Shown piece by piece: positions 2,331-17,944 of a stretch of 18,251 bases of DNA; within the stretch, counting starts at the first letter, position 1; each line of letters starts with the position of its first letter. The DNA lies in assembly GCA_051294375.1 (NCBI GenBank), contig JBJCIZ010000010.1, forward strand, positions 3,517 to 21,767, read 5' to 3'. The notes under the pieces were generated by a model. The model worked only from the letters and a program-made list of their open reading frames with translations. It did no database searches and had not been told where the DNA came from. The position numbers were made by a program, and so were the translations under genes. This DNA is from Paraspadella gotoi (taxonomy: Eukaryota; Animalia; Chaetognatha).

Positions 2331-3188
2331 AACAAGAAGTGGCGAAATGAGGGACTATTCATGTAAATATGATTGTTTGTGTTAATTATTTATACCCATC
2401 TCTTGATAGTAACGTCTGGCGAGATCCAAATAGTTCAAGCTGGTTGATTTTTTTATGTCAAAAAAGTCTTGCGTTGAAAAATCTGCATCCCATCTCTAAG
2501 TTTCTTTGATGACAAAGCGAGCTTTCATCTTGGATGGAATCGGATCAAGTGCACGGGCAAAAATGTTCTTTTCCTTTGACCTTGATTGCCGATTGGCCAA
2601 CGGCAATCATGATTCGCCGATTCAATTTTTGTAGAATTAACTCGAGCATCAGATCCGATTCGGTTTCATGAGGTTTCTGGGTCCTGCAATAAGAATTTTA
2701 ACGAAACTAGTTTTGTTAATTATGACTTTCATTGAAATTAATCAAGATTTGCCTATTTCTTTTCTTCAGATCAAAAGGATTCATCGGGACGATGCGCGTG
2801 ACCTTTGGGTGAGTGGAATTTGTTATATGTATTAAGGCATTGTGAAAGTTGCTCATGAGCAGTCTTGTACTAAAGAACATTGATATGTAAAAAAAATTAT
2901 TTTTAATTTCTCAATTTTCGCATTAGCCTCGTACTTACCATGGAAAATGTTACAATTTAAAAAGTTTTTTCTTAATTTTTAAAGCTGAGCCGAATTCCTC
3001 ATAAAAAGTTAATGGAAGCATATATAGGTCTTAATAAAAAATTATTTTATTAAGTTAGCTAAAAATTAAAGAAATTTAATTTTAGGTTAATTTCATCAGT
3101 TTTTAAAAAATTTGAACTACTTAATAGAAAAATTTTCTAAAAAGAGTTATATTTTCCTTTATAAACTTTTCCTGAGAAATTGGAATCT

Positions 3189-3388
3189 TGTGGAAGACGA
3201 TGCCGCGAGCAGTTTACCGTCCGTTGCACACAAGGTCCCGAACTTCGGATCGGGCTGTAGTCCGACACTACAGGTGGGTTAGACGCCCCGTCCCGCTTTT
3301 ACTTGTGTGAATCAGCAGGGCGCGAATCCGAGTCCTTTGGGTTGGGAGGAGCTCGTGCTACCTGCGGCGCCATAGGTGCTGCTGATTC
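3189..3388 (-). mobile_element. tRNA(Gly-like)-headed SINE carrying twister motif C
   Basis: Minus-strand head 3388-3309 has A-box-like TGGCGCCGCAGG, CT-CCC-AA loop and B-box-like GGATTCGCGCCC, closed by a GAATCAGCAG/CTGCTGATTC stem. Tail ends in TCCACA like copies H and F. Confidence 0.7.
3227..3309 (-). ncRNA. Twister-like ribozyme, P5-type (copy C, best preserved)
   Basis: Minus strand: CACACAAG-UAAAA-GCGG-GA-CGG-GGCGUC-U^AA-CCC-AC-CUGUAGU[GUCGG]ACUACAG-CCCGA[UCCGAAGU]UCGGG-AC-CUUGUGUG. 8-bp P5, 7-bp P3, 5-bp P4, T1 CGG/CCG, T2 AC/GU. Confidence 0.75.
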
Positions 3389-4035
3389 TCGGACGAGTAG
3401 CAGGGTATGAAATACTACCGCTACAATCTGCTCTTTAAATTAAGAAATAACTGTGTTCATTCGAGTTACCTCAAAACCATTTTAAAATTTTGACATTTTC
3501 TATGCATGAATATGGGCTAAAATTTAACAGGTACAGGCCTGTTCAAAGTGTTCATGATCTATTATTCGAATTTTGATTCTATTTGATTTTAAAAATTTAG
3601 CTACGTATTCTATGTAAAGAAACAAAGAAAAAGCTATTTTATTGTACCGTATTGACTCTGACGAATTAGACTTTTATAATTGGTTATGATAATATTTATT
3701 TACAAAGAAAATTGTTTTTTCCCACCCTTATTTGTTTAGAAGACCCAACAACCGACGCTGCTACTTGTGCGGCGTCGTCGGACATTTAGCCAAACAATGT
3801 AAAAATAAATAAAGTGAGTGTTGATTATAAAACTATTTTGAATTATAACCTCGCACTTCGTTACGACTTCAATATTGATAACATCCAGAAACGAACGTCT
3901 CGCGGCTCGTGTTTGGCGTCGGTCCACGCCACCAAGAAGACAAGACTCGATTTGGAAGCCGAAAATTGACTCGGATATATTTTTCATCAAAAGTCGAGAG
4001 ACTTGTTCTCAACCTTGTTGTTGTTTTTTTCATTT

Positions 4036-4241
4036 TGAAGAGACAGTAATGATTGTTGTATGTTAGTGACAGAACCGTTCAATATAAACAGTCCCTGAGC
4101 TTCGGATCAGACTGTAACACCGTGTTACAGGAGGGTTAAGCGCTCAGTCCCTCTTAACTGCTAGGCGGCCACCGGGCTAGAACCCCGGACTTCTAGGTTG
4201 GAAGACGAATGACTTGCCGTTGCACCAATGGCCGCTTATGA
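4036..4241 (-). mobile_element. tRNA(Gly-like)-headed SINE carrying twister motif A
   Basis: Head 4235-4165 has a 7-bp acceptor-like stem GCGGCCA/TGGCCGC, T-arm CCGGG-GTTCTAG-CCCGG and CT-TCC-AA loop. Aligns along its full length with 17350-17556. Confidence 0.75.
4088..4161 (-). ncRNA. Twister-like ribozyme motif (copy A, partly decayed)
   Basis: Minus strand: GCAGU-UAA-GAGG-GA-CUG-AGCGCU-UAA-CCC-UC-CUGUAAC..GUUACAG-U-CUGA[UCCGAAGC]UCAG-GG-ACUGU; one mismatch each in T1 and T2. Confidence 0.6.
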
Positions 4242-4297
4242 GTCCACCATACTTTTATATTAAAAGTAAATGCAAATAGTCGGAGGCTGGTCTTTTT

Positions 4298-4685
4298 AAA
4301 ACAAGTTTAAGCTGGATCTGCCCACGATCATTAGCGGTAAGCAGCTGATCAGATAATTAATTAATAAGTTAACCAATTAATATTAATTTTTTATTTGCAT
4401 CAAAAATGTTTTTTCAATATGTCTCACCTCTCAATCACAAAACAAGACTTGATTTCCTTCTCAATCACACACTTTCCTACCCACATACAAAATTTCAAGT
4501 CTGTCGCACCATCCACTCATGATTAATTGGCGTTCAAAGCTAACGGGGAAACGGACGAATGAACAGACGGACATTTTTGATGATGATGATGTAGGTTACA
4601 TACGACAAGATTTAGAGGTGGGACGGACGGACCGATAAATTGAATTATAGAGCCAGAATCTGCTGTAAGCAAATCCGGCTAAAAA
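4298..4685 (-). mobile_element. DINE-1/HINE-like non-autonomous Helentron-type element
   Basis: Minus strand starts TTTTT-AGCCGGATTTGC (subTIR 4680-4669) with a nearby inverted copy (4663-4651), then a (GTCC)n microsatellite, a distal subTIR partner at 4310-4321, and terminal CTTGTTTT. Confidence 0.65.
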
Positions 4686-5031: not shown

Positions 5032-5053
5032 GTATTTTTTTTTTAGATAGATC

Positions 5054-5260
5054 ATTAGTAGAGAACGCAAAGTTTTAGCATTTTTACAACGAATTTATTT
5101 TGGTTTAAAATACGGACATGATTCGGCTTGCTGGTTTTAAGCCTTCATCAGCGCTGATGTCCGTATTTAAACCAAAATAAATTCGCTGTAAAAATGCTAA
5201 AACTTTGCGTTCTCTACTAATACACCAACAACGAAAAAAGAAAGGATTATTACAACATTA
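5054..5260. mobile_element. Penelope-like pLTR remnant as a head-to-head inverted duplication with a hammerhead at its centre
   Basis: Arms 5054-5119 and 5157-5221 are inverted repeats (1 mismatch, 1 indel). The centre on the minus strand reads CUGAUGA-A-GGCUU..AAGCC-GAAUCAUGUC (GAAA changed to GAAU). The arm extended to 5260 aligns loosely with 12525-12612, next to the other hammerhead. Confidence 0.75.
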
Positions 5261-5364
5261 GACGATCTTAAAAAGTTATTTCAAAAAAATAATACTATAT
5301 TCTGAATCTGTAGTTGGGCATTGCCTAGGTTCACCCCGCCTAGAATCATGAAACTTTAAGTTGT

Positions 5365-5593
5365 GACCCGGTGGCTCATTGAGTAAAGCCATCAGCTCAT
5401 GACCACTAGGTACCGGGTTCAATCCCAACCCGGTACCTACCCTGCGGGAAGCGTGAGGACGGCCGTAAGCCGCCTTGGGGCATGGCAAACCCTCAAGCCT
5501 GGTTCCAAGCCCTGGGACCTGTCCATGGCTGCAAGAGGTGGGTTATAGAAGTTACGGACAGTCAACTTCAGCCCACGGAGCGCCTTATCCACA
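5365..5593 (+). mobile_element. tRNA-headed SINE carrying twister motif H, in predicted intron 1 of the transposase-like gene
   Basis: A-box TGGCTCATTGAG 5372-5383, CT-CAT-GA loop, B-box GGTTCAATCCC 5416-5426, then the twister motif, a GAAGTT/AACTTC hairpin and tail ...TATCCACA. Confidence 0.75.
5444..5522 (+). ncRNA. Twister-like ribozyme, P5-type permutation, palindromic P1 (copy H)
   Basis: GCGGG(P5)-AA-GCGU(P2')-GA-GGA(T1')-CGGCCG(P1)-U^AA-GCC(P2)-GC(T2)-CUUGGGG..CCUCAAG(P3)-CCUGG[UUCCAAGC]CCUGG(P4, one U-U mismatch)-GA-CCUGU(P5). T1 GGA/UCC and T2 GC/GC both pair. Predicted cut at 5466/5467. Confidence 0.75.
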
Positions 5594-5865
5594 AATCTAA
5601 TTTTGAATACATATGATTAAGATTTTTATTTTCATTTGGCATTTATGATAGTTGTTTTTATGTTTAACTCATTACCTGGTCAAAGAATCACAATTATGGC
5701 CTGCTTTTGGGCTTAATCCTGCTAAACCTGATTACTCCATAATACTCCAAAAATATTTAAATATAAGTAGATTAAAAAAAGATTAAAGGTTTTCATATTA
5801 ATCTCTTAGCAGATGACCTACATGATTATTAGAAGGTGTTTTTAACCTTTTTTTTGTCTATTTAG

Positions 5866-6915
5866 ATAGAGGCATTCAAATTGAAGTGGGATCGACAGCA
5901 AATGACCTTGAAATGGAATATGTTGACGAGCCGATCGTCACAGATCCGTCTGAAGAATCTTCTGTCTCAGGATTGATTCATTTAGAAATAAATAATGGGC
6001 CATTGCTACAACCCGAACTTGTTCCTCCAAATAGAGAAGAGGATAACTACGATTTTCCTGCTCCATTGATTTCAGTTGAGAAAGAACCTGAAGTAGATTT
6101 AAACAGAGATAAGCCTATAATTTTTTTAGGCAGATCTGAGGACTCAGATTATAGCAATGAAAACGGATCAATTGAAAATAGCATCACAAGTCTGTTAACA
6201 GACAAAAAAAGCCTTGTAAGGCAAGTGCAATCATTAAAAAAAGTTATAACAGTTATGAATAAACGAAAGGCTAAAAAAGTTATACAGAAAAAAGAGGAAC
6301 TTAAACACTGTAAGAGAATGATCAATCATCATAAAAAAATTGGAAAGAACAAAGACAAGCAAATACAAAAACTGTCAATTTTGCTAAAACAAGAGAAAGA
6401 AAGAAATCGAAAACTTCAGCTGAAATTGGCGGCGAAAAAATTACGTGAGAAACGGTATAAGGATAAAGTACTTGAAGATAACGAAAAACAAAAAGATGCC
6501 ATGAAGCAGCTTCGTGATTTGTATAAAGAGCAGTCTAATGAACTTGCCGCTTTAGAAGAATTGAACGAGTCTTTAAAAGAACATGAGCTTACGATTTTCC
6601 ATAAAGGGAAGTTTAACAATGAAATCCGAGTATGTGCTTGGGAACTTCTTCAACTTGGGATTTCAGCAAGAAAAATACCACTGGCAATGAAATCTGTTTT
6701 AAAAAGACTCGCTGGGAAAGAATTAAGCAAATGTCCATCAAGAAGCTTTGTATCTAGACTTGTAACTGAGAGCCATTCTTTGTTGCAAACACAGATAAAA
6801 GAAAAAATTGAATCTGAACAGGACGCAACTTTGGCAATAGATTCTGCTACCCACAAAGCAATGAGTTTTCTAGGATCGCAAATTCATTTTAAGGATGGCT
6901 CATCCTATACGCTAG
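5866..6915 (+). CDS. Exon 2 of DDE transposase-like gene: acidic linker, Lys-rich coiled coil, helical domain and first catalytic Asp (ATLAID)
   Basis: Polypyrimidine tract plus TTTAG acceptor ending at 5865; open frame of ORF 5886..6932; donor CTAG|GTGAG at 6915/6916 (phase 1). TLAIDSAT followed by beta-strand-like segments resembles the start of an RNase H fold (Asp codon 6840-6842). Confidence 0.85.
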
Positions 6916-7004
6916 GTGAGAATTATTTTTAAGGATTGCTGAACTAAATTCAATTTATTAAGCACTTTGCTATGTGAACCTTTTTTTTCCTTTTTTTTCA
7001 TCAG

Positions 7005-9022
7005 GTCTGAGAGCCATCTGTAAAGAAGATGCAAAATCATTGCTGGGTTATATTCATGACAGGTTTCAACAAATTGCTAAAAACGGATTGAAAGCGGAAG
7101 AAAATGAATTGGAAAAATTAGCAGAAATAATTTGTAAAGTTGGCAATACCATGACGGATCAAGCACCTGTAAATGGAGCTTTTGCCAGAGAACTTGCACA
7201 TTTGAAAGAGCAGTTGTTGCCTACAATTCGGGCTAATAATGAGTTATCCCCTGACCAAATGAGAAGTTTATCAACAGTAAACGTCTTTTATTGCCAACTC
7301 CATTTAATCAGTAATCTTGGGATTTCTGCCATAAATGCTCTGAAAAAGATGGAATCAAAAGAAAAGTTAATTGATAATCCTTATGCTTTTAGTCAGGAAA
7401 AACCGTCAGTTCAACGTTTCAACCGAAATATTTCTGCAGTTTTCCACCCACATCAAACTGAAAAAAATTGGCGATTGGTTCAAGTATGGGAAGCATTTCG
7501 AGAAGAAAAAAAAATTGAAAACGCTGTTTATCACGAACACAGTAGAGCAGGAATTGAGTTTCCAGCTTCAACAAGAAACCTTATTAATTTTGAACATCTC
7601 AAAGAATTTTTTGAATTTGAAGATGGTACGCTGATATACAATTCCATTAAATATGATCTAAATCATCCTCTAGTCTTACATCAATTAAGGGCATTGAGTC
7701 TTTATGATGTTCTGATCATTGCTCCTTTGTGGAGAATTCTTTATGGAAAAGAACAAAACCATGAATATGCAAAAGTGAAAATCCATATTTTGGAAATAAT
7801 ACCTCACTTGCAGAGTCTTCAAAATTACTTAAATGAAATTACTGAAGGTAGCTCTAAATTGCTTGAAGGAGAATCGCCATTTCCAAAAGTATTTTTAGAC
7901 AAAAGTCGACTTTCCTCTGTTATGGGATTAATGCCAACTGATCATTTTAACAGAAAGCAAATCTTGAAAATCACCAAACTTATTGGTGAAGCAATGCTAC
8001 TCACGTTGATGACTCAGGCAAGAGATTTTTTGTCAGGGGGAAAACATGATGCTCTTCAAGATGATCCAAGTTTTGTCAATGCGACTACCAGTGTACCGAC
8101 CACAAATCAGAAAGGAGAATCAATTTTTGGATTATTGCGGTATTTAAAAGATTCTAAACCGACTGCAAAACCTACTACCTTGGAAGCTAATGCAATGTTA
8201 CAGACGAATAATCTCACAGCGTACATTGATAGCAAAAGTATAGAAGAACAGAATTATCTTATTGAATCTGCACGCAAGTCATACACAGGCAGAAAAAGAG
8301 AAGAGAAATTGATTTACCAAAATTATAAGAAACAGTTGTTGGAAAAACGACGCCAATCAAATAAAGCTAAAATGGAAAAGGATAATGAGAAAGCAAGAAA
8401 AAAAATAGAAATTGTAAGAAAGTTTACTGACAACTATGGAACTCCGTGGCTACAAGATGAGATTCCTACCAAGTTGGGTTTGTTACAGAGTGAAAAAGAA
8501 AAACTTTTTGCAGTTAACTTATTGATCGAATTTTTGCACAAAATTGGTGACGCAACCTGTTCAAACAAAAACGTATTTAATAAGACCAGTAACAAAAAAG
8601 AATTCACTTTGTGTGAAAAACTTGAGCATTTAGAAAAAATTTATGAAGAAAATCCGCAATTGAAAGAATTAGATTTCATTGAACAGGAAAATCCTGACGT
8701 TGATGTTACTGAAGCGGCTGAAGTTGTTACAGCAGAAATTAAGGAAAAACTGCAAAGAGCAGTCAAAAAGCAAGCTGTAAAAAGAAGTCAAGAGTTATAT
8801 AGTTCTTTAATTCAGGAACCTGAAAAATTAGTTAATTGTGAGTTTGAAATTAAAGTTAATGGCGGTTGGCAAAACGGTAGGGTGACAAATATTGTCAAAC
8901 CTATCAAAAAATTTTTGTATTTTGACACTGAAATTGATGGAAAAATTTTAAAAATAAGGATTCTTCAAGAGCTAAAAAAAGGCAATTTGATAATTTTAAG
9001 CCACGGTATTTTACATGAGTAG
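7005..9022 (+). CDS. Exon 3 of DDE transposase-like gene: second Asp (NTMTD), CxxH motif (FYCQLH), Glu (PTTNQKGES), coiled coil, small C-terminal beta domain
   Basis: 89-nt intron 6916-7004 (GTGAG...TTTTTTTTCATCAG) joins in frame to give YTLG|LRA. Asp codon 7157-7159, CQLH 7292-7303, Glu 8117-8119, stop TAG at 9022. The D...D...CxxH...E layout is characteristic of the hAT/P/MULE/Kolobok group. A Kolobok-like subgroup assignment is from memory and tentative. Confidence 0.85.
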
Positions 9023-10605: not shown

Positions 10606-10651
10606 CTTGTAAGAGTGATGGAGGCCTTAAACCACCAAAGTCGGGGGCAAG
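10606..10651 (+). ncRNA. Internally deleted twister-like motif (copy I)
   Basis: CUUGU-AA-GAGU-GA-UGG-AGGCCU-UAA-ACC-AC-[P3 and 5' P4 arm missing]-CAAAGU-CGGGG-GCAAG. Retains palindromic P1, bulged P2, P5 and the T2 AC/GU match. Confidence 0.5.
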
Positions 10652-10992: not shown

Positions 10993-11029
10993 CTGTAGTG
11001 GCAGACTACAGTCAGATCCGAAGTTCTGA
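10993..11029 (+). repeat. P3+P4 fragment of the twister-like SINE motif (copy D)
   Basis: CTGTAGT-GGCAG-ACTACAG-TCAGA[TCCGAAGT]TCTGA: same loop as copy C with a compensated P4 stem. The 5' half is not recognisable. A weaker fragment lies at 12742-12795 (-). Confidence 0.55.
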
Positions 11030-12603
11030 AACTAGCAAAAAATAGGCGGTAATTGGTCCTGTCTCTGTAGCACTTAAGGTTAATTTTATTTGTAAAATTA
11101 AATTCCTGTTAAAAGCTATTAAATGAAAATATAATAAAAGTTTGTACAATATATATATAAATATATATTGTATTTTTTTTTAATAAATATTTTTAATAAT
11201 AAAGATTTTTAATCTGTTTTTTCAAAGTATTCAAACTTAAAAAAAATCTTTTGTAATCTGATGATCATTTTGAAAAAAATACCTTTGTGAAAGCAAAAAT
11301 ATAAGCTAAATTACTGGAATATCCGAGTATAATATAATTTAAAGTTGTCTTATTTAGAGTAATATGGTGATGTTTAGGGTAAAAACTTTGTTTCTCCCCA
11401 AATTTGGCAATTGATTGTTAACATATTGATTTTTTTGTATTTTGATTTGAAATTCATATTTACTTTCAGGTTAAATGGTAATTCAGTTTTAAAAACGTAA
11501 GCTTTTGCCACACACTTTTGACTCAAACTTTGTGTGTGTGTGTTTATAATGACGTCTTCTGTCTTTCCCAATGATTATTATTATGAGTTATTACGGAATA
11601 GCCACCAATAACCAATATAGGGGCCATATTTCTTTGTCAAACCCTGCAATAACTTGCAAATAGACAAATTAACAAAGAGAATCTTACAAAATTGGAAAAA
11701 GCTTGGAAAGCTTGGAAAAAGCCAAATTTGGTATGCCTAAATACTCATGAAAATATTTATTATAGTAATGATATTTTTTAATTTAACTATGTATTGTTTA
11801 GATTTTATTTTAAAGTTAAGCAAATAATATTTTTATTACATTAGTTGGCTTCATTATATAGTTAAAAGTAAAATTGTTCAAATTAAAATATAAAAAATAT
11901 TTAAAAAATAATTTCATGAATAGCTTGGCATATGGATACTGTTAAAGGTGGTTCATGGCATTTGTTCTTTATTTGTAATATTATTGGCGCCGTCTCCTAA
12001 TATTGCCCGATCAAAATTATTCCAGATTACAGGGTCAGATTCCAAAAAAAAAGCTTATTGGATTCTTGGATTTTGTTCCATAGACTGATAGAGTGAAGTA
12101 TAATGTTGAAAAATCAAGTTAAAAATAAATTATCAAAGTTAAGTATTTATTATTGCCCTTTTTTTCTAATATTATTCATGAGTTTAATTGATTTTTAAAA
12201 ATATAAAAGTTGAAACATTTATTTCACTCTTAACAATCTTTAATTTCAACAAAAATAGGTCAAAGAAAAAGTTTAATTTTTAAATTAATATCCCTGGTCA
12301 CCGAAATAAAGTAAGAATAGAAATTAAAGTGTCGCGCTCCCAGTGTCTTAAACCAAAAGACAAACTCGTGAAAAAATTTAAAGAACTGTTCATTATTTTT
12401 CATAGTTTTTGTTTGACTTTTTGTACTTATGAAAATATGAATTTGTGATTATCAATATGCTAAATATCACCATCTTGCTCCGTCTTACTGACTTTAGCAT
12501 AAATTTTATAAGATTAACATGTATTATATTATTTCCTTTCTTTTTGTTGTGTATAAATAGAGAAATCAAAGTTTGTTTGTTTGATAACAACGATTTTTAT
12601 TTA

Positions 12604-12657
12604 CATTGGACATGTTTCGGCTCTTGCTTTAAGCCTTCATCAGCGTTTGTCTCAATA
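12604..12657 (-). ncRNA. Minimal type I hammerhead ribozyme of Penelope-like element type
   Basis: Minus strand: UAUUG-AGACAAACG-CUGAUGA-A-GGCU[UAAAGCAAG]AGCC-GAAAC-AUGUC^CAAUG. Intact CUGAUGA/GAAA core, stem II, palindromic ACAUGU stem III, GUC cleavage triplet. Stem I pairing is short and offset. Confidence 0.8.
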
Positions 12658-12684
12658 ACAATTTTTTCTCTTTAACATTGAGTT

Positions 12685-12707: not shown

Positions 12708-13318
12708 TTAATATGTAAAATAAATGGTATAAACAGTTTGTTTCAGAACTTTTGATCTGATTTTCTTATTTTTAAGCGGTTTATCCGGCCTTGTATTGTT
12801 AAGTATTGTAAATCATGGTTGTATATCTGCCCGCTTGGTGGAGCCAAGAAATCTTCACATTCTTGCATTCGATGTTCGATTCAAATTGTGGTTTCTCATA
12901 GGTTCAACTTGGGTTTTTATTGTACTATTTTTATTGGATTCTTGTGTATCAAGTCTTCTGGCATTCTTAAAACCTGTATTATTATTATATTGAAACGTAT
13001 TGATGGTCAAAATTTCGTCTCATACAAGTTTGCCCTAGTCACAGATATTTATGTGCTGACCAATTCAATATGTATATTGCATATGTAGTTTGGATGATCG
13101 CAGCCTTATATGAAAACGTCAATTTTTTGGTAATTTTATTCTAGTGGAAACACATTTTAGGGCCTTCACAAGGACTTTTTTGAAATGTTGCATTGATTTA
13201 TATATGCCCACATTTGATTTAATTGTACATTTTGCAGATTTCATTTTTTGAGTGATGTTGAAAAAATTATTAGTAATGATGGTTTATTTCCAGAGACAAA
13301 ATTATTAACGCTGACATA

Positions 13319-13930
13319 ATGAGCGCCCTGCTGTTTTCAGACAGTATCATGAAGAAATTGAGCAAGAAACATTTTGAAAAACTTACTTCTAATTCTGGAA
13401 TTAAGGATATTGAATTGCACGCTTTTTCTGGGGCTCTTGTTGATGACCTAATTGGCCCAAATGGATATATTAACTATCATTTGAGCTCAAAGTACTCAGT
13501 TTTACTTCTAAGTGCAGGCCAAAATGATGTCAGTGCATTAGTTAAGTCGACTAATGATTTGCCATCAAAATTGGCTGAGAGGATTACCATAAAAATAAAA
13601 ACATTAACATGCAAAATTGCGGAAAAATTTCCCAACCTCAAAATATTTTTTATTCCCCTCTGTCCTCGGAAAATGAATTTGGATCAAAAGACAAGGTTTC
13701 CAGAATCACTAAGCCCTGATTATATTTCCGATGTGAACCAAGTTATTCAAAAGGTCAACAAGTCCTCCATCTCTTGCAGTTGTCATCCAAATTCAGTTTT
13801 CAAAATCTGCCATGAAATCTTTGATAAAGACAAGGACTTGGTGGTTTACGACGGATTACACCCTAGTAAATTGGGGCTTGATCTTTTAGTTGGCGCCATT
13901 TGTGACTCTTTTGATGCACATTTGAATTGA
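13319..13930 (+). CDS. SGNH/GDSL hydrolase (esterase) domain protein, retroelement ORF1-esterase-like
   Basis: All four SGNH blocks are present: LFSDS (block I Ser), FSG (II), AGQND (III), DGLH (V). Possible splice acceptor TTTCCAG ending at 13293 with an open frame into the ORF; AATAAA at 14225-14230. Confidence 0.85.
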   Translation: MSALLFSDSIMKKLSKKHFEKLTSNSGIKDIELHAFSGALVDDLIGPNGYINYHLSSKYSVLLLSAGQNDVSALVKSTNDLPSKLAERITIKIKTLTCKIAEKFPNLKIFFIPLCPRKMNLDQKTRFPESLSPDYISDVNQVIQKVNKSSISCSCHPNSVFKICHEIFDKDKDLVVYDGLHPSKLGLDLLVGAICDSFDAHLN

Positions 13931-13968: not shown

Positions 13969-14163
13969 TGTGGATAGCCCCAGTGGATCTTTGAGATTTT
14001 GCCGCCAGTTACCTTGCTATCCGGAACTTTGGAACCGGCGGTAGGTTTGCTACCGTTGGTTTAACCGGTCCGTCACACTTTTGCAAGCTCCATTCCGACC
14101 TGGGCTAGAACGCAGAAGCATCAGGTTTGAAGATGAAGCGTCAGCCCAGTCCAATGTTATGGC
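13969..14163 (-). mobile_element. tRNA-headed SINE carrying twister motif F
   Basis: B-box-like GCGTTCTAGCCC (14113-14102), matching the GTTCTAGCCC of copies A and B. Tail CCACTGGGGCTATCCACA resembles the copy H tail. A related head remnant lies at 15192-15225. Confidence 0.65.
14013..14087 (-). ncRNA. Twister-like ribozyme motif (copy F, partly decayed)
   Basis: Minus strand: CUUGC-AAAA-GUGU-GA-CGG-ACCGGU-UAA-ACC-AA-CGGUAG[CAAAC]CUACCG-CCGGU[UCCAAAGU]UCCGG-AUA-GCAAG; single mismatches in T1, T2 and P4. Confidence 0.6.
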
Positions 14164-14548
14164 ATTAATGGAAGGAACGGTCGTATTGAACGTGTAGTGT
14201 GATATTAAGTCACTACACATTTGCAATAAAGTGTTTGACGTAGATTAACATAGGAGGACTCACTTGTTGCAAGTGCAAGTTACAACCTGACAGATTCAAT
14301 TAAAAAAATTATATAATTAGTTTTAGGGACAAAAATTTATTTAGGTTTTATCTTAATTCTCGCAATCGACTTAGTATTCGCGATAATTTTTTGATGGATT
14401 TCCTTTTATTTTACTTCATTGGTGTAACCAAATTATTCATCAAACATAAGTTACAGAAAGTAGCAGGGGTTGGTTATCCATCCCCTCTGGGTTGGCTTTT
14501 ATAGCGTGCATAGGAGGTCCATCAGCTTGGAATCCGGCTGTAGTTTAA

Positions 14549-15137
14549 CCGGCCCAGGTTGAAAACTAGAAGTTCTTTCAAATAAATAATGGTTAAGTGA
14601 CTGTTAGAGATAATGAAAATGAAAATAATTTTTTAAATTTATCTTATTAATTAGTGCACGGAAGCATTTAAATATTATTTTATTACTATATAAAGTTTAA
14701 AATTTTTTTTTAATTTTTTTTAATAGATTCTGATAGAGCTTTAAAAGTTAGATAAAGGTTATTAATACAAATTTTTAAAAAATCTTTTGTTTTATTGAAA
14801 ATTTAAAAAACTATGAAATTCAGCCAATGATGATGAAGATGATTATTTTTTAAGGTTTTTTCTATTTTTAACCAATTTATTGTCAAAATTTAAAAAAATT
14901 GTAGTACTAACCTTCATTTAACTTTTCAAGCTCTATAGGAATCCGTTATTAAAAAATAAAATTTTTTTAAAAAAATTTTGTTATTTGTTATATATTAATA
15001 AATATTTAAAAGCTTCAGTGCAACAACCCAATGAACTAATTCAAAAAGTTGCATTGAAAATCGATTTAGTAATAGAAGAGAAAAAAAAAATTTTGAGAGA
15101 ACTAAAAGTTATAAAAAGTGTTCAATTTTGGCTCGGC
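14549..15137. mobile_element. TTAA-flanked non-autonomous TIR element (589 bp)
   Basis: TTAA at 14545-14548 and 15138-15141. Degenerate TIRs: CCGGCCCAGGTTGAAAACT..AGTTCTTTCAA vs GCCGAGCCAAAATTGAACACT..AGTTCTCTCAA. Its interior aligns with 1-346. Confidence 0.55.
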
Positions 15138-15223: not shown

Positions 15224-16130
15224 GGGTATCCCCACTCAATGAGGTGAGTCAAAAATTTAGAGTGAGTACATGCTCAAACAAAAATTTATACATTTTTAAG
15301 TATAGTTTAAATGTCTCTATACCCTAGTAATTAATTTTTATTATAGATAGGAAAGGCCAAAAAATTTTTAAAAAAGATTTTTATGATAAGTAGGTCAAAA
15401 ATAAGAAAAACTGTAATAATTTTAATTAGGCAGAGACCTTCAGAAAAAAACCTTTTTGATAAAAAATATTTTAATACTATAATCTATGCTCATGATAGAT
15501 TATTTTAATGCTAAATACTTTACCATTTAAATTTCATTGTATCATGTAGAGATAGCCATAGCCCATGAAATTTAAATTCTAATGTATTCAGCATTAAAAT
15601 AATCTATCATGAGCATAGATTATAGTATTACAATTTTTTTGTCAAAAAGTTTTTTCTGAGGGTTCTAGCCTAATTAAAATTATTATTTTACTTAAATAAA
15701 AAAAAATTAAATGTTAAAATTTTTTGATGGATTCTGATTGAGCATAAAAAGTTAAACAAGAAATATAATACAGCTTTTAAAAATTTTTACGTTTTTTCAG
15801 TAAAAATAAAAAAAAAACGATAAAATCATTGAAAGATGATGATTTTTTATAGTTTTTTTGACCTATTTATCATAAAAATATTTAAAAAAGAATTATATTT
15901 TATGTAGACAACTTTTTATGAGCTATCTGAATCTGGTCTTAAAATTTCTTTTAAAAAATTTTGGCCTTTCCTATCTATAAATAAATAAATATTAAAAAAT
16001 TAATTATTAGGGTATAGAGCCATAAAAAAGATTTTTTGTTCTTTGAAAGTATATTTAAAAATGTATAAATTTTCGATTGAGCATATACTTACTCTAAATT
16101 TTTGACTCGCCCTATTGAGTGCGGCTACCC
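15224..16130. mobile_element. Foldback/MITE-like element with long nested inverted repeats
   Basis: Termini GGGTATCCCCACTCAAT.../...ATTGAGTGCGGCTACCC, with arms pairing inward to about 15537/15565. Includes a perfect 41-bp inverted repeat 15472-15512 / 15590-15630. Confidence 0.85.
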
Positions 16131-17349: not shown

Positions 17350-17556
17350 TGAAGAAACAGTAATTATTGATAAATGTTAATGACAGAACCTTTTAATATG
17401 AGCAGTCCCTGAGCTTTGGATCAGGCTGTAACACAGAGTTACAACCGGGTTAAGCGCCCCGTCCCTCTAAACTGCTAGGCGCCCACTGGGCTAGAACCCC
17501 GGACCTTTGGGTTGGGAGGCGAATGACTTGCCTCCGGCACCAATGGCCGCTGATGA
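17350..17556 (-). mobile_element. tRNA(Gly-like)-headed SINE carrying twister motif B
   Basis: Head 17550-17479 (GCGGCCATTGGTGCCGGAGG...TTCGCCTCCCAA...GGTTCTAGCCC) resembles tRNA-Gly; dispersed paralogue of 4036-4241. Confidence 0.75.
17401..17476 (-). ncRNA. Twister-like ribozyme motif (copy B, partly decayed)
   Basis: Minus strand: AGCAGU-UUA-GAGG-GA-CGG-GGCGCU-UAA-CCC-GG-UUGUAAC..GUUACAG-CCUGA[UCCAAAGC]UCAGG-G-ACUGCU; close relative of copy A. Confidence 0.6.
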
Positions 17557-17580: not shown

Positions 17581-17944
17581 ATAAACATTTTCTACAGTAA
17601 AAATGATCATAATTGATTCTCTGGAAAAGGTATGGAACCTTAGTTTTTACTGTAGAAAATGTTTATTATTTTTTATGCCACGAGGGTCGCGCATTTGATT
17701 CGTCGGCCGTAGGTTAAACTGGCTTTAACATGGAATCAAAGGATTTTCTACTTAAATTTATAGTACATCATTAATTTCGCCATTTATTTACCTTTACAAT
17801 AAATAAACTTATTCACGATTTATTCGACATTTACGTCATTCGAGACTTAGAAAGCCTTGCTCCATGTTAAAGCCAGTTTAACCTACGGCCGACGAATCGA
17901 ACGCGAGAACCTCATGGCATAAATAATGATAAACATTTTCTACA
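17581..17944. mobile_element. Palindromic MITE-like element with an extra terminal inverted copy
   Basis: Arms 17651-17750 / 17846-17944, including a perfect 38-bp inverted repeat 17697-17734 / 17861-17898. Additional perfect 23-bp inverted repeat 17581-17603 / 17644-17666. Confidence 0.8.

Follow-up and report, generated by a model that had tools for sequence, protein, structure and literature searches.

Palindromic hexamers in place of P1 in twister-like motifs of candidate solo LTRs from Paraspadella gotoi

In the passages of the literature covered here, a pair-dependent design was found only for hammerhead ribozymes, and the twister counterpart predicted below from sequence would be new. 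The hammerheads of Penelope-like elements, of newt and axolotl retrozymes and of avocado sunblotch viroid have, beside the cleavage site, a helix of 1 bp with a palindromic loop, and their dimers are active according to passages of PMC4209133, PMC7229834 and PMC8865084. The axolotl hammerhead, with one pair and a palindromic tetraloop, is described as active as a dimer (PMC7229834), and double hammerheads as cutting oligomers and sparing monomer circles (PMC8865084, PMC4209133). Plant retrozymes carry their ribozymes in LTRs, have 4-bp target-site duplications (TSDs) and exist also as solo LTRs, as described in parts of Cervera et al. 2016 (PMC4918200). In passages of PMC10085705, PMC5786205, bioRxiv 10.64898/2026.07.22.740005 and the other papers cited here, dimers are likewise hammerheads and LTR retrozymes are hammerhead-bearing plant elements.

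What eukaryotic twisters do biologically is largely unsettled, and the importance of their P1 is debated. P1 is described as dispensable for twister cleavage in a passage of PMC6154101, and one of PMC8501958 describes cleavage in its absence as possible though inefficient. The Schistosoma Perere-3 twister variants (passages of PMC8501958) and the truncated RTE twisters (mentioned in PMC7761336) resemble the motif described here in their weakened P1 and retroelement context; unlike it, they lie at the 5' end of LINEs and have their P1 completed by the insertion site. Neither 'palindrom' nor 'dimer' appears anywhere in PMC8501958, and neither a palindromic-P1 or dimeric twister nor a twister in LTRs was found in the titles and opening abstract lines of the open-access papers listed by full-text searches.

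The DNA analysed here, an 18,251-nt stretch referred to as the window, holds six copies of a twister-like motif with a palindromic hexamer in place of P1. It was concluded, with a probability of about 0.5, that the carriers may be solo LTRs with a type-P5 twister-like fold which would cut efficiently as a swapped pair, formed most likely by the two LTR copies of one transcript. The predicted pairing shares with the dimeric hammerheads the helix of 1 bp plus palindromic loop beside the cleavage site; the two ribozyme folds are unrelated, and, since hammerheads need stem III to be active and twisters reportedly can do without P1, the gate may be weaker here. With the plant LTR retrozymes (passages of PMC4918200) the carriers share a ribozyme in a short LTR, a 4-bp TSD and solo LTRs, the primer site and purine tract being present here as hints only. 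Unlike the carriers, those plant elements contain a type III hammerhead and are described as lacking promoters, in contrast to the tRNA-like segment found in the LTR here, and metazoan retrozymes are described in parts of PMC7761336 as lacking LTRs, in contrast to the LTR-like carriers of this non-plant host.

If the reading is true, LTR retrozymes reach beyond plants and hammerheads, and two unrelated ribozymes have converged on the same design of dimer control. The diverged families found here keep a P1 that, as predicted, could be completed only between two copies, and their carriers offer a direct test of the role of twisters and of the importance of P1 with a 90-base RNA.

Copies of the motif and their fold

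Positions and strands in the window are as follows.

3189..3425, - strand: element D, solo-LTR-like, 237 bp, of a high-copy family, with an exact 4-bp TSD and all core pairs intact
3282-3287, - strand: hexamer GGCGUC of D; predicted cut at 3281/3280, tRNA-like segment at about 3310-3392
4036..4249, - strand: element B, 214 bp, TG...CA, without an exact TSD (4 of 6 flanking letters alike)
4139-4144, - strand: hexamer AGCGCU of B, private to this copy; T1 and T2 with a single mismatch each, tRNA-like segment at 4164-4236
5309..5593, + strand: element A, of 285 bp and solo-LTR-like, with the termini TGTAG...TCCACA and an exact TSD of 4 bp at 5305-5308 and 5594-5597
5362..5436, + strand: tRNA-like segment of A; at 5416-5426 it contains a B-box-like word, with no more than 2 mismatches to the B box
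5451..5515, + strand: type-P5 twister-like core of A, with arms of P5 on either side, as judged from RF02684 (12.1 bits, model 1-58) and pairing counts
Parts of this core, + strand: P2' 5451-5454, GA 5455-5456, T1' 5457-5459, P2 5469-5471, T2 5472-5473, P3 5475-5496, P4 5498-5502/5511-5515, L4 5503-5510
5460..5465, + strand: hexamer CGGCCG of A, in place of P1 and its loop
5466..5468, + strand: UAA of A, predicted cut between U5466 and A5467 (RF02684 alignment; analogy with the U-A site in a passage of PMC8501958)
10612..10636, + strand: fragment F, twister 5' half (P2' to T2), hexamer AGGCCU at 10622-10627
10994..11029, + strand: fragment F2, 3' half (P3, P4, L4), related to D, 34.7 bits with the model of the other copies
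13969..14217, - strand: element E, 249 bp, sharing its terminal words with A and D, its ends not flanked by a TSD
14064-14069, - strand: hexamer ACCGGU of E; one mismatch each in T1, T2 and P4
17350..17581, - strand: element C, of the family of B, 232 bp, exact 6-bp TSD
17453-17458, - strand: hexamer GGCGCU of C; one mismatch each in T1 and T2

In the core of A all pairs of P2 (3/3), T1 (3/3) and T2 (2/2) and four of the five pairs of P4 can be formed. The UAA cleavage strand and the GA on the opposite strand are present in all six copies, and the P5 duplex closing the ends and P4 with its conserved loop (4-5 of 5 pairs) in 5/5. In A and D, which differ in sequence at these places, P2 and the T1 and T2 pseudoknots pair in full; in B, C and E each pseudoknot contains one mismatch. 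The mismatches of B look like decay of that copy, since at one T1 and one T2 position B differs from the family majority (94-95 % of depth, X1). Fragments F and F2 may represent one copy split by 357 bp because L4 of F2 fits T1' and T2 of F.

The order of the parts, the UAA, GA and L4 words, and T1, T2, P3, P4 and P5 with their covariation agree with the type-P5 twister (Rfam RF02684, clan CL00120). Three features set the motif apart from that type. P2 comprises 3 bp and a one-base bulge, with all pairs kept and one covarying, in contrast to the 4-bp P2 of type P5. A P1 hairpin of at least 2 pairs and a loop is missing, as the linker of 6 nt in all six copies allows in cis at most 1 bp plus a tetraloop; P1 is thus 6 nt long and loopless here, where the model has 3+14+3 and twisters from phages have 20-26 nt. 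Finally, the Rfam score is low: copy A matched Twister-P5 (RF02684) over the full model with 12.1 bits, below the gathering cut-off of 37.6 and with P2 one pair short, element D gave no Rfam match at E<=10 and the whole window none at E<=1. Phage contigs used as a control yielded 14 distinct well-paired twisters of P5 order (22 of 58 loci), all with P1 segments of 20-26 nt, and an Rfam check of 10 loci confirmed two of these controls and two further loci as P5.

It is very probable that the motif has a twister-type fold. Despite the three formal differences (P2 length, P1 hairpin, Rfam score) it is probably a type-P5 variant that works like a twister. Such ribozymes are probably under-counted, since the Rfam model misses a repeat that thousands of contigs cover.

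Relatives were looked for with pattern scans. None was found among 113 loci from one scan of viral contigs and 120 of about 230 from another (10/13 pairs at best) or among 119 loci in prokaryote genomes (8/10 pairs at best, many being the end of one insertion sequence), and the only locus from metagenomes was judged to be a chance match because its P4 is unpaired. Short linkers in the loci L129, L155 and L167 proved to be parse artefacts, all three being read by Rfam as type-P1 twisters. The phage contigs L155 (130-229, - strand) and L167 (110-209, + strand) each hold two back-to-back compact type-P1 twisters, in which the 6-nt linker together with the U before the cut reads as the self-complementary AACGUU and P1 of the second copy is unpaired at three of four positions. 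A compact type-P1 twister-like sequence was also seen by eye in an archaeal MAG (Nitrosopumilaceae, L215).

The carrier elements

All five full copies lie in elements of 214-285 bp with TG...CA termini, and the terminal words TGTAG and TCCACA are common to A, D and E. TSDs of 4-6 bp are exact in three of the five (A and D 4 bp, C 6 bp); for A, whose terminal words are the same as those of D and E, a TSD was present at only 1 of the 40 TG..CA boundary pairs examined. Two repeats stand out in the sequencing reads over 3170-4300; their flanks are mixed, their sharp ends lie at 3189/3425 and 4036, and at all three ends the TG...CA boundaries agree with the read data. The summed contig depth of the repeats, which is not a copy number, exceeded that of the sequence between them by a factor of thousands (7622 contigs, X1).

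In family D the loose-end consensus has TGGTGA one base past the terminal CA (X2, X5) and a run of eight purines directly before TG (X5), both as plurality calls with an agreement of 0.44-0.46 over 14-30 contigs. This hints at a primer-binding site and a polypurine tract; the loose-end consensus of the B/C family gave no sign of either. Two LTRs flanking an internal region were not found within the window, which contains solos only. Taken together, the carriers are likely, as the simplest reading of their sequence, to be solo LTRs of several retroelement families, a point on which the original prediction was silent and which is new here.

Between the 5' end and the ribozyme, starting 13-53 nt inside the elements, there is a tRNA-like segment with A-box-like words in B, C and D and B-box-like words (within 2 mismatches) in 5/5, without a match to ARAGORN or Rfam tRNA. 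The segment of A (no strict A-box match, no call by ARAGORN or Rfam tRNA) may possibly contain an internal Pol III promoter. No TTTT occurs on the sense strand of any of the five elements. An HDV-like reading of the + strand beside B and C, made by eye, was dropped in favour of the tRNA-like reading on the ribozyme strand. In their possible internal promoter the carriers resemble Cassandra TRIMs, which have one of Pol III type within a short LTR; unlike the carriers, Cassandra TRIMs are 5S-derived and are not known to contain a ribozyme.

Element A seems to sit in an upstream intron of a gene at 5826-9022 (+ strand), where open frames of 368 and 686 codons are separated by an intron-like gap; the frames look transposase-like by eye and gave no convincing Pfam match. 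A 216-codon frame at 13280-13930 (+ strand), with weak, sub-cut-off GDSL/SGNH matches, ends 39 bp from E on the opposite strand. A search of proteins 118-378 residues long yielded no homologue for it at E<=0.001, and no tie to E was established.

Palindromic hexamers

The original prediction had placed six hexamers, all 6 nt long and self-complementary, between T1' and UAA, without giving their strands. All six were found where it had put them: 5460-5465 and 10622-10627 lie on the + strand, and 14064-14069, 4139-4144, 17453-17458 and 3282-3287 on the - strand. The constant length was borne out by a scan of the whole window for the 5' half of the twister core with the linker left open at 4-14 nt, as each of its six matches had a linker of exactly 6 nt. 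The same scan of block-shuffled sequence (n=200) returned 0.07 matches on average and 2 at most.

Self-complementarity held as well, in 6/6 hexamers, with 18 of 18 cells of the alignment of six copies pairing when G-U is permitted. Two-sided changes were seen at each of the three hexamer pairs, the adjacent 3-4 pair included, which is unable to form inside a single strand. The score for pairing and covariation was equalled by one of 500 shuffles, a control that disregards relatedness, and sliding the partner by 1-3 columns reduced the pairing to 11-67 %. By way of background, 4.2 % of 1192 hexamers within the five elements are self-complementary, as are 12.5 % of the 96 in which the inner four bases are all G/C and none of the 38 distinct 6-nt linkers among chance pattern matches in viral contigs.

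The copies at 4139 (B) and 17453 (C) are 85 % identical and constitute one family, which reduces the six copies to five families with 57-69 % identity between them. Permutation over the five families gave p = 0.002 for all pairs and 0.02 for the two inner pairs alone, ancestry being ignored in both. At place 4144, 98.9-99.8 % of read depth in 4/4 runs carries the base with which the word reads as in copy C. The perfect palindrome AGCGCU is therefore a private change of copy B, and the word of the B/C family has a G-U outer pair. The read data, over 3170-4300, provide population data for the places of D and B; among 40 of the 83 variant rows none concerns a hexamer position other than 4144. The proposal that palindromy is kept while the sequence changes between copies holds for palindromy and has to be narrowed for sequence, which differs between families and not from copy to copy. 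The inner four-base words comprise the palindromes GGCC, GCGC and CCGG and one wobble variant. The covariation signal thus appears to be real but rests on few events, in five related families with perhaps two or three independent inner changes.

A look-alike at 14548-14553 (- strand, hexamer GCCGGU) lacks P2', GA and P3, was missed by the model of the other copies and was excluded from the five-family count. The surrounding segment at 14525-14560 (- strand), with GCCGGU, UAA and an L4 word, is a doubtful seventh twister relic.

Pairing between two copies and its alternatives

The contrast drawn earlier between 1 bp plus a tetraloop in cis and a 6-bp helix in trans was upheld by energy estimates of -6.3 to -10.7 kcal/mol for the two-strand helix and +4.1 to +6.0 kcal/mol for one pair with a tetraloop. 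The hexamers rank 7-47 by duplex strength among the 216 self-complementary hexamers. None of the inner four-base words belongs to the GNRA, UNCG or CUUG loop classes. A swapped dimer was estimated to lie 10-16 kcal/mol below two monomers, a value for nested pairs only, with both pseudoknots and the kinetics left out.

Pairing between two copies is quite probably the reason for the palindrome. If the hexamer helix acts as P1, the halves must swap: T1' and GA of one copy would act with UAA and L4 of the other, the two being joined through a palindromic P1 of 6 bp. The RNA of a full element would carry two LTRs and, with them, two ribozymes. The swapped pair would, as described for double hammerheads, cut the precursor at both copies and spare the monomer circle; after the two cuts P2, T1 and P5 would keep the ends of the unit together in a state fit for ligation, and one weak ribozyme would be left in the circle. 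The palindrome would then serve as a check that two copies are present and not as a family label. These steps are inferred from the DNA anatomy and go beyond it. More tentatively, the elements might be regarded as an animal class of LTR retrozymes that use a promoter of Pol III type and whose double twister is obligate; from them a unit RNA would be cut out as a circle that does not recut. With LTR-like carriers and two ribozymes per RNA a copy-number sensor would not be needed, and two-LTR RNAs would cleave independently of concentration if the two-LTR model is true. Since other twisters are reported to manage without P1, the monomer itself may cleave, and the gating is less secure.

It is also conceivable, though unlikely, that the ribozyme cleaves well as a monomer and that the palindrome is preserved to serve a different RNA-RNA contact, for instance a kissing site through which genomic RNAs or circles would dimerise for packaging, on the model of retroviral dimer-initiation loops. 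LTR elements package two RNAs, a GC-rich 6-nt palindrome in an exposed loop looks like such a site, and the same covariation would be accounted for. The dispensability of P1 reported in passages of PMC6154101 and PMC8501958 fits as well. What speaks for a function in P1 instead is that the hexamer, constant in length, coincides exactly with the place of P1 in 6/6 copies, has no flanking stem of its own and adjoins the scissile U, for all of which the precedent of hammerhead stem III is the better fit.

As first proposed, separate transcripts would pair, and cleavage would sense abundance or family and remove the promoter-bearing head when copies are many. The dispersed solos with one ribozyme each, their very high copy number and the dimer energies, which would permit trans pairing at high concentration, agree with this version, which is nevertheless rather improbable. 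Its words are not orthogonal: those of families C and D cross-pair 6/6 at -7.3 kcal/mol, more strongly than D pairs with itself (-6.3 kcal/mol), and those of A and F, identical in the inner four bases, cross-pair 4/6. A swap in trans would moreover have to open P2, T1 and P5 already folded in cis, and an LTR element offers the second copy on the same RNA. Because hexamers of different families cross-pair, the idea of a subfamily self-recognition code is weak and found no support; of the earlier interpretation, the twister-type fold, the loopless palindromic 6-nt P1 and covariation pointing to pairing between ribozymes were supported.

Little credence can be given to the view that the palindrome arose by chance from shared ancestry and a high GC content, with a linker free of pairing constraint in a P1-less monomer or a decayed relic. 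The five elements are indeed related (57-69 % identity between families), both inner positions pair by chance in 24 % of all-GC inner words, and the inner-pair permutation p is 0.02; against this, GGCC, GCGC, CCGG and the wobble variant each need paired changes, and pairing in 18/18 cells contrasts with 0/38 control linkers. It is very improbable that the carriers represent, in place of LTRs, SINEs with a tRNA head or pieces of Penelope/Naiad origin, with pairing between tandem copies, for although the ribozyme is preceded by a tRNA-like segment, a trait of the Schistosoma hammerhead repeats too (passages of PMC6765202), the elements have TG...CA ends, short fixed TSDs and mixed flanks at the family ends, start 13-53 nt before the tRNA-like part, end in CA without a simple-repeat tail, show no head-to-tail joint among 15 of the 50 joints listed, and are full-length dispersed units with TSDs in contrast to the 5'-truncated partial tandems with 30-40-bp tails described in parts of PMC8557442.

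A hammerhead scan of the window found cores only outside these elements, the LTR-like carriers holding a twister-type fold in place of the hammerhead of LTR retrozymes. At 12600-12660 (- strand) lies a minimal hammerhead, of type I and like those of Penelope elements, whose stem III bears the palindromic tetraloop CAUG; it is the hammerhead version of the twister design in the same window. Just upstream of A, a 74-nt inverted repeat at 5036-5239 encloses a hammerhead-like core (5114-5151, - strand), also with CAUG. The presence of minimal hammerheads of metazoan type near the elements agrees with a host other than a plant. Nested long inverted repeats, fold-back or MITE-like, occupy 15224-16130 and 17651-17944, and GC-rich arrays of 30-nt units at 357-560 and 2220-2340, with the word GGAT in both, flank a 2-kb stretch.
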